Positions 33,080 to 35,761 of a stretch of DNA of 64,000 nucleotides are shown one piece after another. Within the stretch, counting starts at the first letter, position 1. Each line of letters begins with the position of its first letter. A program made the translations under genes and the position numbers. Under the pieces are notes generated by a model. The model searched no databases, was not told where the DNA came from, and worked only from the letters and a program-made list of their open reading frames with translations. This DNA is from Dehalococcoidia bacterium (GTDB lineage Bacteria > Chloroflexota > Dehalococcoidia > Lucifugimonadales > VXLM01): positions 3,938,947 through 4,002,946 of the forward strand of contig OZ244722.1 in the NCBI GenBank assembly GCA_965219245.1. The letters are read 5' to 3'.

Positions 33080-33105
33080 AAAAAAAACCCTCCGCAAGCG
33101 GAGGG
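33080..33105 (-). terminator. intrinsic terminator inside the cysHDN leader (attenuator)
   Basis: The minus strand reads CCCTCCG-CTTG-CGGAGGG followed by T8, ending 28 nt upstream of the cysH ATG. Confidence 0.7.
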
Positions 33106-33144
33106 GCCAGAGGTCTTCACTTTTGAACTGTCGGCGTTAGTCGG

Positions 33145-33207
33145 TCACCGGCACGCATGTCGAAGCAGAAGACTCTCTGGTCTCCGGCAACAACAGCAGC
33201 AAACCAT
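33145..33207 (-). CDS. cysHDN leader peptide, 20 aa, MVCCCCCRRPESLLLRHACR
   Basis: Hand translation of the minus strand: ATG GTT TGC TGC TGT TGT TGC CGG AGA ... TGA. Five consecutive Cys codons at 33187-33201. It lies between the promoter and the terminator. Confidence 0.65.
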   Translation of the reverse strand: MVCCCCCRRPESLLLRHACR

Positions 33208-33233
33208 ATGTGTAACGGCACTCACAACGATAC

Positions 33234-33262
33234 ATATTACGAGTGCTCATCAGGAATGTCAA
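33234..33262 (-). promoter_or_regulatory. sigma70-like promoter of the cys leader: TTGACA, 17-nt spacer, TAATAT
   Basis: The hexamers read on the minus strand (33262-33257 and 33239-33234). Confidence 0.55.
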
Positions 33263-33374: not shown

Positions 33375-33704
33375 TTGTTCTCAATGTGTGACTCATACAA
33401 CGCATTGGTGTTTCGTACTTGGACGAGGATCATGAATGGGAGCGACGCTCCCGTCATCGTCTCGATGTCGATTGGCATCGGAGGGATCATCCTCCTGGAA
33501 TCGTCTCTGAGCTTCCTCGGATTCGGGATCCAACCTCCAGGCGCAAGCTGGGGGAGCATGGTAACGGAGAACCTATTCCAGTGGCGCACTTATCCGCATC
33601 TGGTGCTCATGCCCGGTCTGACCCTGGCCATTGCGGTCATCGGGTTCAACTTCCTGGGTGACGGGCTAAACGACGCACTGAACCCGCGGCAGATTCGCCG
33701 ATAG
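33375..33704 (+). pseudogene. 3' fragment of an oligopeptide/dipeptide ABC permease (DppC/OppC-like)
   Basis: Only the last roughly 85 residues are family-like (ESSLSFLGFGIQPPGASWG...NFLGDGLNDALNPR). The N-terminal two thirds are missing. Confidence 0.7.
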
Positions 33705-33732
33705 CTGTGTAGCTGAAGGCAGTATTTCTCAA

Positions 33733-34718
33733 ATGTCAGAACCGGTACTCAGCGTAAGAGAACTCGAAACGCACCTGTACTCTCGCGAGGGCACCATCAG
33801 GCCGGTGAACAGCGTGAGCTTCGATATCCACGAGGGGGAGACCCTGGGAATTGTCGGCGAGAGCGGCTCCGGCAAGACGATGACGGCCCTTTCGATCATG
33901 GGGCTGATTCCGAAGAACCTCGGCGGGGTCGTAGGCGGGAGCGTGATGCTGGACGGGGAAGACCTGGCGATGATGACCGATTCGGAGGTCCGCCGTAGAC
34001 GCAGCACAAGATGGGCATGATATTCCAGGACCCGGCCACGTCGCTCAACCCGACGATGAAGGTGGGCCCGCAGATAGCAGAGACGATGAAGACCCACCTC
34101 GGCATCAACGACAGCACCGCGCGCAGCAGGGCGATAGAGTTGCTCGACCGCGTGGGCATCCCGTCCCCTGAGGGCAGGTACAAAACAATTACCCGTTCCA
34201 GTTCAGCGGCGGCATGAGGCAGCGGGTGATGATCGCCATCGCGCTTTCTTGCGATCCGCTGCTGCTCATCGCGGACGAGCCGACGACGGCGCTCGACGTG
34301 ACCATTCAGGCGCAACTGCTGGACTTCGTCCGCGAGATCTAAAGAGGAACGCGGAATGTCTGTCATGTGGATCACGCACGACCTGGGCGTGGTAGCAGAA
34401 CTGTGCGATCAGGTTGCCGTCATGTACGCCGGTTCGATTGTCGAGATGGCGTCGATAGACGACATCTTCGCGCGGCCAAAACGTAGGTATACGTCGATGC
34501 TGCTCAACTCCATGCCCTCGATCGAGGAAAGGACGGCGGGAGGACTGATGTCAATCAAGGGTCTGCCGCCTAATCTCGCGAGTTTGCGGCCAGGCTGTCC
34601 ATTCGCCGTCCGATGCAGCGCGCCGGTGGAACGCTGCACCATGGAACATCCTGCCCTGCTGCCCGTTGGCGAGAACCATCTGGCCGCGTGCTGGAACCCT
34701 GTACCGGATCCCGCGTAA
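33733..34718 (+). pseudogene. peptide ABC transporter ATPase (DppD/OppD-like) broken by three frame disruptions
   Basis: Walker A GESGSGKT (frame 1), MGMIFQDP (frame 3), [13 protein letters not shown]...[11 protein letters not shown] (another frame, ending in TAA), then MSVMWITHDLGVV and the C-terminal oligopeptide domain. The pieces are collinear. Confidence 0.75.
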
Positions 34719-34740: not shown

Positions 34741-35761
34741 ATGACCCAAGACTCCAACACGAACAACAACGTGCTCGTCGACATCAAGGGCCTGAAAACC
34801 CACTTCGAGGTAGGGTCGAAGGGGATTATCTTCGGGCTGGGCGCCAACAGAAACATCGTCCGCGCGGTCGACGGCGTTGACCTCACCATCCGTGAGGGTG
34901 AGACGCTCGGACTCGTCGGAGAGAGCGGGTGTGGCAAGTCGACGCTCGGCTATTCGATCCTCCAGCTCGAAAAGCCGACCGATGGCGCAGTCTCTTTCGA
35001 GGGCACCGACCTAACAAAGCTCAAGAAGAGCGAAATACGCCCATTCCGCAAGAAGATGCAGATCGTGTTCCAGGACCCGGCCGCGGCGCTCGACCCGCGC
35101 CAGACCGTCGGTGAGGCAATTGCGGAGCCGATCAGGATCCACCGGATCGTGGAGGACGAAGAGGTGGAGGACCGCGTCGAGGAGCTTCTCAAGACGGTGG
35201 GGCTGAACCCCTACTTCAAGAACCGGTATCCACACGAGTTCAGCGGTGGGCAGCAGCAGCGCATCGTCATTGCGAGAGCGCTGTCGGTCAATCCCACGTT
35301 CATCGTTGCCGACGAACCGATCTCGGCCCTAGACGTATCGATTCAGGCGCAGATCATTCAACCTGCTGGAGGAGTTGCAAGACCAATTCCAGTTGACCTA
35401 CCTATTTATTTCGCACGACCTGCGGGTGGTGCGCCACATCAGCGACCGCGTGGCCGTGATGTATTTGGGCAAGGTGGTCGAGCGGTCGGCGACGGGCGAC
35501 CTCTATAGTGAACCGCTCCATCCCTACACCAGGGCGCTCTTGTCGGGCGTGCCCGCGCCTGACCCGGTTTTGGCTCGAAAACGGGACAGGATCATCCTGG
35601 TGGGAGACGTGCCCAGCCCGATCAATCCGCCAAGCGGGTGTCGGTTCCGTACTCGGTGCCCCATAGCCGTCGAGATGTGCGCCCAGGACGAGCCGCCCTT
35701 GGAGGAGAAGCGTGACAACCACTGGGTAGCGTGTCATCTCGTAGAGGCGGAGGCGAGCTAG
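34741..35761 (+). pseudogene. peptide ABC transporter ATPase (DppF/OppF-like) with one frameshift near 35357
   Basis: GESGCGKST and [15 protein letters not shown]...ADEPISALD lie in one frame. [21 protein letters not shown] continues in another after an extra C in ATT-C-AAC. Confidence 0.75.

Follow-up and report, generated by a model that had tools for sequence, protein, structure and literature searches.

Organization of the cysHDN Leader

The cysHDN operon of an uncultured Dehalococcoidia bacterium lies on the minus strand of a 64-kb window (the whole stretch of DNA that was analysed) and is preceded by a leader containing a promoter, a short open reading frame (ORF) with five consecutive Cys codons, and an intrinsic terminator. 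All of the evidence presented here is computational. On this basis, we consider it likely that the leader is a ribosome-mediated leader-peptide transcription attenuator that senses charged tRNA-Cys and controls cysHDN.

Read on the minus strand, as are all leader features below, the operon begins with cysH, encoding a (phospho)adenylyl-sulfate reductase (33052-32303; NCBIfam NF002537, E = 4e-78). It continues with cysD and cysN, which encode the small (32342-31350; NCBIfam NF003587, E = 1e-129) and large (31347-30004; NCBIfam TIGR02034, E = 3e-157) subunits of sulfate adenylyltransferase. These matches confirm the gene assignments of an earlier note on this DNA, which had been made from the sequence alone. 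A convergent ORF is found beyond cysN, so the operon consists of cysHDN. Its product, sulfite, feeds cysteine synthesis, a function that fits regulation by a Cys sensor. No further sulfur-metabolism genes were found near cysHDN in the window neighbourhood.

The leader begins with a -35 box, TTGACA (33262-33257), which is kept in all 19 close (group-A) leaders, followed after a 17-nt spacer by a -10 box, TAATAT (33239-33234), both detected in a promoter scan. The TAnnnT pattern of the -10 box is conserved, and a GTG codon at 33225 occurs 8 nt downstream of it. The ORF that runs from this GTG to the TGA at 33147-33145 (33225-33145) is 26 codons long and encodes MSAVTHMVCCCCCRRPESLLLRHACR; counted from an in-frame ATG at 33207, the strand reads as MVCCCCCRRPESLLLRHACR (33207-33145), ending at the same TGA. 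Five Cys codons in a row, TGC TGC TGT TGT TGC (33201-33187), constitute the proposed sensor. Farther downstream, the intrinsic terminator stem-loop CCCUCCG-CUUG-CGGAGGG (33105-33088), identified by a terminator scan and by pair counts, has a 7-bp stem with six GC pairs and a free energy of -12.3 kcal/mol, and is followed by a U-tract of T8 (33087-33080; strand reading and terminator scan). Twenty-seven nucleotides separate the U-tract from the cysH ATG; they include the cysH Shine-Dalgarno sequence AAGGAG (33064-33059; strand reading), for which there is no conserved sequestering pairing. The earlier note had located the promoter, short ORF, Cys run, terminator, T8, AAGGAG, and cysH ATG, and its coordinates are all correct when read on the minus strand.

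Scans of the surrounding sequence set this arrangement apart. Within 1.5 kb, the leader promoter is the sole promoter-like match and the leader terminator the only terminator-like one. Over 20 kb, 14 terminator matches were observed versus 13.4 expected from shuffles; the leader terminator is the only strong one, and the 13 weak ones are at chance level. The terminator sequence is unique within the window, and on account of this single occurrence a repeated or mobile terminator element was rejected. A run of at least four consecutive TGY codons occurs at one place on both strands of the 64 kb, where 0.09 are expected. There is no second short ORF with five consecutive Cys in the window; the few short ORFs in which three of six codons specify Cys are all isolated and were rejected as other Cys leaders, at least one of them (35211-35303, minus strand) sitting inside an opposite-strand gene. 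A second promoter between the terminator and cysH was likewise rejected: the best candidate, TTGCGG-N16-GAAAAT, fails the scan, and its -10 box is, by eye, not conserved in relatives. Because no conserved promoter lies within the 27 nt between the U-tract and the cysH ATG, cysHDN depends on read-through of the leader terminator. A search of 2.5 kb against Rfam 15 at E up to 10 returned four chance-level matches, far below gathering scores, and no family that fits the leader.

Distribution and Diversity of Cys Leaders

The nearest CysH proteins are metagenomic, and those that are named come from Chloroflexota and Dehalococcoidia metagenome-assembled genomes (MAGs). An exact look-up of the window CysH in public assemblies gave no record, and one of P0029 yielded ordinary metagenome contigs that bear no information about transcript ends. 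We scanned 78 cysH loci from a genome collection and 61 more from metagenomes. The closest loci (82-96% CysH identity) all belong to Dehalococcoidia MAGs, some of them sponge-associated judging by isolate or bin names, and the more distant loci include marine, Caspian, and Baikal Dehalococcoidia. A Cys leader was defined as a short ORF with at least three Cys in seven codons, followed by a GC hairpin and a T-run. Such leaders occur 90-290 nt upstream of cysH in 26 of the 35 Dehalococcoidia/Chloroflexota genome loci; the 42 loci farther away, from Leptospiraceae, Proteobacteria, Bacillaceae, and others, have none, and a 56-codon ORF flagged in locus L033 looks spurious. Cys leaders are also present in 12 additional metagenome loci and in the L140-144 lineage, for a total of approximately 40 loci from marine and sponge Dehalococcoidia. 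Approximately 45 cysH loci from outside the clade lack the arrangement. The earlier note had suggested scanning related cysH upstream regions for Cys-run ORFs followed by terminators, and had regarded lack of conservation in orthologous leaders as decisive against its proposal. Both the ORF and the Cys run are conserved, and the central claim of that note, a Cys-codon leader ORF coupled to a terminator/antiterminator ahead of cysHDN, is strongly supported by the relatives.

These leaders divide into approximately 13 types that cannot be aligned with one another. Their clusters contain three to six Cys codons, and ten loci (L029, L089, L092-097, L099, and L101) have versions holding one or two. 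Examples of the encoded peptides are MSAVTHMVCCCCCRR..., MSFQNACCCLPTRD..., MNIMKGTCCCCCCPTGVGV, MTLLCLCTACCCTS..., MRTSPSKCHCCTV..., ...ARVCLCCNPLRRRDN, ...LCLCICGRQMGVW, ...NCACACCATLL..., ...YACACCGTPEGETA, and MLEEARSAKCSCCKAAGG. The order of parts is constant across types: a -10 box, a start codon, the Cys cluster, a G-rich segment complementary to the terminator 5' arm, and the terminator. In nearly every leader-bearing lineage, a GC-rich hairpin is followed directly by five to nine T, with terminator hairpin energies of -9 to -26 kcal/mol across lineages.

Among the close relatives, the Cys codons are in frame in all 19. Single-nucleotide indels just past the Cys codons shift L005, L007, L009, L015, L016, and L049 into another frame with another stop. 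Selection on the peptide, as read from these alignments, is thus limited to the Cys codons, and it is the RNA sequence and its pairings, not the amino acids, that are conserved; this is the signature expected of a regulatory leader ORF. The close relatives also largely conserve two stops in different frames (TGA, and TAA or TAG) within one small hairpin. Relatives with a 1-nt indel use the second stop (alignment A1 columns 91-93; the TGA occupies columns 84-86), and the TGA is lost only where it is not read (L007 and L016).

Several other loci resemble the Cys leaders in part. The region at ~1270-1440 of L021, from a Thermoflexus sp. MAG, contains a -10 box, an ATG-initiated ORF, and a terminator, with the Cys codons TGC GGC TGT TGC out of frame; it is either a decayed leader or the product of a MAG frameshift. 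In L089, L092-L097, and L099 (63-65% CysH identity), a probably leaderless short ORF encoding MKITYITTRNCACTSE..., with one or two Cys codons, is found 150-300 nt upstream of cysH. It is accompanied by two successive T-runs, the second after a clear hairpin, and then by a spacer of ~150-190 nt to cysH.

A Probable Leaderless Start

The GTG at 33225 in the window is conserved in the close relatives, in frame with the Cys codons and 8 nt past the -10 box. As L002 and L011 have no in-frame ATG ahead of the Cys codons, the GTG is the sole plausible start before the first Cys codon in those loci. No Shine-Dalgarno sequence precedes the ATG at 33207 in the window. Across at least 12 leader types, the start codon occurs 7-10 nt past a TAnnnT box, so the 5' untranslated region (UTR) would be about 0-3 nt long, i.e., the mRNA would be leaderless. 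The leader ORF of the window probably starts at GTG 33225 on a leaderless mRNA, and not, as the earlier note had assumed, at ATG 33207 after a 27-nt 5' UTR. In the L087/L140 type, a GGAG 13 nt upstream may serve as the start signal instead. Some genomes of Chloroflexi are predicted to contain leaderless genes (PMC3160421).

Conserved and Mutually Exclusive Helices

An RNAalifold consensus was computed from 19 close leaders, and helix pairs were counted on 19-20 close relatives with slid and shuffle controls. The consensus corresponds to the OFF conformer and consists of a helix we call P1, hairpin A, a middle hairpin, and the terminator. The 5' strand of P1, UGUUG (33195-33191), lies within the Cys codons, and 93% of its cells are paired; its 3' strand is CGACA (33162-33158; consensus and pair counts). 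Hairpin A, GGAGAC-CAGAGA-GUCUUC (33185-33168), is 97% paired, and four relatives carry a compensatory change from CG to UA at its columns 51:56; it combines with P1 into the putative anti-antiterminator. The middle hairpin (33156-33134) is conserved by both consensus and pair counts and contains the TGA at 33147-33145 and a TAA at 33139-33137. The competing antiterminator, identified by folding and pair counts, consists of a 5' strand, CGGAGACCAGAGAGUCUUC (33186-33168), and a 3' strand, GAAGACCUCUGGCCCCUCCG (33118-33099), whose final bases are the terminator 5' arm. The two complementary segments of the earlier note (33188-33168 and 33118-33098) read exactly as it gave them.

The OFF conformer as a whole is 95.5% paired versus 44-55% in slid controls, with three compensatory pairs, including that at columns 51:56 in four genomes, and one of 500 shuffles reaches its paired percentage. 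For hairpin A and the terminator taken together, the values are 96% versus 46-72%, with two compensatory pairs in six cells, and none of 500 shuffles reaches either the paired percentage or the covariation score. The antiterminator is 92% paired versus 46-65% and has one compensatory pair, GC to CG in L081, where CCGCAGGG pairs with CCCUGUGG; one-sided changes in this structure are all wobble-compatible. Alignment column 51 pairs in both structures: its change from C to U gives a U·G pair in the antiterminator and is compensated in hairpin A. More broadly, in each of 16 lineage representatives, the segment past the first Cys codon is a better complement of the terminator 5' arm than its dinucleotide-shuffled counterparts are (mean z = -1.57).

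The antiterminator drawn in the earlier note therefore stands in its overall pairing but not in its distal helix, GUCUUC/GAAGAC, which we rejected as a conserved part: columns 58:124 pair in nine of 19 relatives, and it is the least conserved portion. Many relatives could, by eye, use CUUCUG/CAGAAG in its place.

Two further features of these RNAs were observed. In L018, L019, L080, L082, L084, and L086, the inner terminator stem (CAACA/UGUUG or GCA/UGC) mimics the Cys codons, so the Cys codons are complementary to the terminator 5' arm; in the mask model described below, a ribosome on the Cys codons of this type lowers, rather than raises, antiterminator occupancy. At 33168-33152 in the window, a conserved pattern G(-10)...Y(-1)G(+1), CUG CUUCGACAY G, occurs 11 nt past hairpin A (by eye). 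It resembles a hairpin-dependent (class-I) RNA polymerase pause site and is a candidate for a pause that could synchronise ribosome and polymerase.

Ribosome Position and the Choice of Structure

The thermodynamic effect of a ribosome was modelled with a mask that extended from the first base of the A-site codon 15 nt in the upstream direction and 8-12 nt in the downstream direction. Folding energies are -12 to -16 kcal/mol for the terminator, about -4.5 to -11 kcal/mol for hairpin A alone, and -14 to -19 kcal/mol for P1 plus hairpin A, and the hold of the antiterminator on the terminator arm is -6 to -10 kcal/mol. These proportions resemble those of the classical trp leader.

We folded the window leader length by length, with and without the ribosome mask. 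In the absence of a ribosome, the domain of P1 and hairpin A has formed by nt 64-72 and is the minimum-energy structure until nt 120. The antiterminator is then favoured briefly, at nt 124-136, by ~2-6 kcal/mol, and reaching it requires a large rearrangement; given this brief advantage and the cost of rearrangement, the default outcome is termination. A ribosome on the first Cys codon blocks the formation of P1. Hairpin A alone (-6.5 to -10 kcal/mol) then gives way at nt 116-120 to a long helix formed with the downstream strand (-19.5, then -27.9 kcal/mol), which reaches CUCCG by nt 128, ahead of the terminator 3' arm.

A forced-structure comparison, in which the RNA was constrained either to the antiterminator or to hairpin A, gave the same direction of effect. 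In all 20 close relatives, the antiterminator is favoured by 3-11 kcal/mol more when the ribosome sits on the early or middle Cys codons than when it sits at the stop. The window leader itself gives -12 to -15 kcal/mol for those Cys positions, -9.9 kcal/mol for the stop, and -5.6 kcal/mol for free RNA. In the simple mask model, the textbook pattern, with antiterminator occupancy high at the Cys codons and low at the stop, is seen in L087, L023, L024, L025, L102, L096, L101, and L029.

Proposed Mechanism

The leader combines the features of an attenuator: clustered codons for the pathway product, an intrinsic terminator, an antiterminator, and an anti-antiterminator that overlaps the Cys codons. 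These sequence elements, their conservation, the mutual exclusivity of the helices, and the direction of the thermodynamic effect of the ribosome mask are what the analysis shows. To them the attenuator model would add the start of transcription, the translation of the ORF, the kinetics, and the response to cysteine, all of which we infer.

Transcription would begin at, or within a few bases of, the GTG at 33225, and the leader ORF would be translated first. When Cys-tRNA is plentiful, the ribosome would clear the Cys codons and traverse the antiterminator 5' strand. After its passage or release, the anti-antiterminator would refold locally, with outer P1 pairing Cys codons 3-4 (UGUUG) with CGACA and the inner hairpin pairing GGAGAC with GUCUUC. 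The terminator 5' arm would then remain free, the terminator would form, and transcription would stop before cysH. Because a ribosome at the stop codon leaves the antiterminator strand uncovered, this OFF state would have to rely on fast refolding of the anti-antiterminator; steric hindrance by a ribosome inside the 45-nt loop of the antiterminator may add to it.

When Cys-tRNA is scarce, the ribosome would stall on the first Cys codons, covering the P1 5' strand. The weak inner hairpin alone could then form, to be displaced once the downstream strand had been transcribed. Pairing of CGGAGACCAGAGAGUCUUC with GAAGACCUCUGGCCCCUCCG would bury the terminator 5' arm, the helix extending onto this arm before the 3' arm exists, and would allow read-through into cysHDN.

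A number of observations weigh against attenuation as described. The fold energy of the whole leader is unremarkable (z = -1.17), and since the single sequence is unexceptional in this respect, the case rests on the comparison with relatives. When the complete terminator is included, equilibrium folding gives the terminator with a probability of ~1 at any ribosome position. Equilibrium terminator occupancy was dropped as uninformative and replaced by folding of RNA truncated before the terminator 3' arm; because equilibrium favours the terminator in every case, any switch has to be a kinetic one. In the energy comparison of conformers that the earlier note had proposed, the ribosome on the Cys codons shifts the balance toward the antiterminator, and the terminator prevails at equilibrium throughout. 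Ribosome position also sets limits. On the last one or two Cys codons, the ribosome covers GGAG and blocks both structures, so that the earlier idea that stalling at the Cys codons leaves the antiterminator free stands for the first two to three of the five codons but not for these. At the other end of the ORF, the stop codon lies ~20-27 nt beyond the antiterminator 5' strand in the window and its close relatives, and in the window lineage a ribosome at the stop leaves antiterminator occupancy equal to that of free RNA. The earlier note had held that translation to the stop disrupts the antiterminator; in the window, with the stop ~20 nt past the 5' strand, the ribosome leaves that strand free. 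The anti-antiterminator made of P1 and hairpin A, which that note did not describe, accounts better for the OFF state. In the sister lineages L023, L024, and L025, the ribosome at the stop does mask it, and such masking is the typical geometry of leader-peptide attenuators, not a strict requirement.

The remaining points against attenuation are comparative. Antiterminator covariation is thin, the close relatives being too much alike: there is one compensatory pair, and 16-26 of 500 shuffles equal this result. The covariation test suggested in the earlier note yielded compensatory pairs in both the OFF conformer and the antiterminator. In the closest relative, L003 (from OZ240223.1; leader at L003:1327-1476; 96% CysH identity), CGAAG replaces the CGGAG of the window, which abolishes the predicted hold of the antiterminator on the terminator arm (ddG of 0 versus -6.1 kcal/mol); the leader of L003 may be naturally weakened, or the difference may stem from a sequencing error. 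Finally, L017, L079, L083, and L107 (~73-77% CysH identity) are without a Cys leader. In these loci, cysH directly follows an upstream gene and a terminator-like hairpin. The leader has been lost or was never gained there; lineages of both higher and lower CysH identity have one.

Alternative Explanations

Four other accounts of the leader were considered, of which a translational one is unlikely and has the closest precedent. In it, alone or on top of termination, stalling exposes the cysH ribosome-binding site, as in mycobacteria, and the hairpin and T-run are mainly structural. The nearest experimentally studied system, Ms5788A of M. smegmatis, is a polycysteine leaderless ORF that controls access to a Shine-Dalgarno sequence (10.1101/834739). 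For L004, L006, L009, and L012, moreover, folding of the full read-through transcript predicts pairing between the U/C-tract and the purine-rich Shine-Dalgarno region GAGAAGGAG, with probabilities mostly of 0.8-0.96 for the GGAG core. The predicted partner varies, however: some leaders use the U-tract, L001 and L002 use the Cys codons, and the window, L015, and L049 show no consistent partner. No sequestering helix is conserved among the close relatives, and sequestration of the mycobacterial type was rejected on account of this inconsistency; the GC-rich hairpin with five to nine T that is found in almost every leader lineage is the signature of an intrinsic terminator. The modelled pairing of U-tract and Shine-Dalgarno region in the four loci may be incidental or a lineage-specific translational layer. 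It is improbable that the ORF is instead an independent small gene, with its own promoter and terminator, whose product is a Cys-rich peptide acting, for example, in metal binding or redox chemistry. Small Cys-rich proteins exist, the unit does consist of a promoter, a short ORF, and a terminator, and the N-terminus MSTAMHMV is fairly well conserved within the close relatives. Yet past the Cys cluster the frame shifts between close relatives, the peptide is unrelated across lineages, and it is the nucleotide sequence and its pairings, not the amino acids, that are conserved. A separate gene would also leave unexplained the specific association with cysH across 13 leader types and the mere 27 nt, with no conserved promoter, from the U-tract to the cysH ATG.

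The conservation of alternative helices would suit a riboswitch-like RNA that senses a ligand, a tRNA, or a protein, with the short ORF incidental, and sulfur-metabolism genes of Firmicutes are controlled by S-box and T-box leaders, both of which PMC1262725 cites. We consider such a sensor very improbable in this case. The leader has no match in Rfam 15 at E up to 10, no aptamer-like conserved core was found across lineages, and what the lineages have in common is the in-frame Cys cluster and the start codon by the -10 box, not the structured part. Least probable is that a Cys run, a promoter-like site, and another transcript's terminator coincide by chance, which the insignificant single-sequence fold z-score would allow. 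The arrangement is found again in approximately 40 loci of 13 sequence types, and the control loci lack it; by chance, one window would hold 0.09 (TGY)4 runs; and the terminator lies downstream of the leader promoter and is owned by no upstream gene, the neighbours being on the other strand. The comparative data effectively refute coincidence, and attenuation by transcription termination remains our preferred interpretation.

Sequences Adjacent to the Leader

Directly upstream of the leader promoter, on the plus strand (33375-34718), are pieces of an Opp/Dpp-type ABC transporter. A permease is represented by its C-terminal half (33375-33704) and an ATPase by an N-terminal piece (33733-34020); an oligo_HPY C-terminal piece (34356-34718) lies separately. 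The absent N-terminal portion of the permease would overlap cysH. These fragments look like pseudogenes or frameshift errors of a long-read assembly.

Implications

If the proposed mechanism is correct, the leader would close a gap among the textbook attenuators, as a conserved example for Cys that works through a terminator. Leader-peptide control would also extend to the Chloroflexota, in this case to abundant SAR202-like Dehalococcoidia of oceans and sponges that are not cultivable. Thirteen unalignable versions built on one plan suggest that evolution readily makes such sensors out of a leaderless start and a handful of Cys codons. The mechanism would further imply that leaderless initiation is fast enough, and sufficiently coupled to RNA polymerase, to decide termination ~150 nt downstream. 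Annotation pipelines miss these leader ORFs, and the leader could be added to them. In metatranscriptomes, the ratio of terminated to read-through transcripts could report cysteine or sulfur limitation in uncultured populations.

Comparison with Known Systems

Leader-peptide attenuators that act through a terminator have been described for Trp, His, Leu, Thr, Phe, and Ile/Val. The window leader shares with the classical examples of the Proteobacteria (trpL, hisL, leuL, thrL, pheL, and ilv) a leader ORF with a run of codons for the pathway product, a nested and exclusive set of anti-antiterminator, antiterminator, and terminator, and an intrinsic terminator just ahead of the first structural gene. 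In both, the terminator is more stable than the antiterminator, so that the switch is kinetic. Unlike them, the window leader uses cysteine, belongs to the phylum Chloroflexota, and has an apparently leaderless start instead of a Shine-Dalgarno sequence. The stop codon of the window lineage also lies ~20 nt past the antiterminator 5' strand, whereas L023-L025 have the textbook geometry. Classical leader-peptide attenuators include the trp and ilvB leaders of Actinobacteria (PMC1262725). In a 2010 survey, leader-peptide systems were known only in Proteobacteria and Actinobacteria, to which a His leader in Firmicutes was added (PMC2965389).

With the S-box (S-adenosylmethionine) riboswitches and Cys T-box leaders of Firmicutes, too, the 5' leaders of genes for sulfur or cysteine metabolism choose between a terminator and an antiterminator. 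Their sensor, however, is an RNA aptamer or the binding of a tRNA; the Rfam search of 2.5 kb detected no such motif here, and the proposed sensor is a translated ORF.

Leaders with Cys runs have been described in Actinobacteria. Comparative genomics in 2005 predicted Cys-run leader peptides in Mycobacterium, P. acnes, and B. longum, without terminators, and suggested a possible involvement of Rho (PMC1262725). These resemble the Dehalococcoidia leaders in being short ORFs with runs of Cys codons ahead of cysteine genes, but have no recognisable terminator, whereas the Dehalococcoidia leaders have clear terminators and antiterminators. The earlier note knew of no experimentally characterised Cys-run leader; such leaders have in fact been characterised in M. 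smegmatis, where polycysteine leaderless short ORFs (Ms5788A, of a Cys 'ribulon') were found experimentally to be Cys-responsive and to expose a downstream ribosome-binding site (bioRxiv 10.1101/834739, published in Mol Microbiol 2020). Four such polycysteine ORFs, Rv2334A, Rv0815A, Rv0485A, and Rv2391A, are present in M. tuberculosis (PMC13096801; PMC13236596). No Cys-sensing short ORFs are known to have been studied experimentally outside mycobacteria.

In the mycobacterial and window leaders alike, an operon for cysteine or sulfur assimilation opens with an unannotated ORF that has a cluster of two to six Cys codons, and the peptide sequence is not conserved. As predicted for the window, the mycobacterial start codon is at or beside the transcription start, and stalling at scarce Cys-tRNA, which would have the same effect here, relieves repression. 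They differ in their output. The characterised mycobacterial example is translational, with pairing that hides the Shine-Dalgarno sequence and no intrinsic terminator, whereas the window leader has a conserved GC hairpin with U8 and a competing antiterminator and no conserved Shine-Dalgarno sequestration. The window leader also belongs to the Chloroflexota, not the Actinomycetota, and has no sequence similarity to the mycobacterial ORFs, which therefore probably arose independently of it.

In the literature searched, the coverage of which is incomplete, neither a terminator-based Cys attenuator nor leader-peptide attenuation in Chloroflexi was found, and no description of the present combination was encountered. 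By analogy, the Dehalococcoidia leader resembles a classical attenuator in its predicted working and the mycobacterial ORFs in its sensor and start, in a new phylum. We lean, with some reserve, toward regarding it as the first classical intrinsic-terminator Cys attenuator and the first case of leader-peptide attenuation in the Chloroflexota: leaderless, present in at least 13 sequence-unrelated versions, and an independent reinvention of the mycobacterial Cys 'ribulon' with termination as its output.

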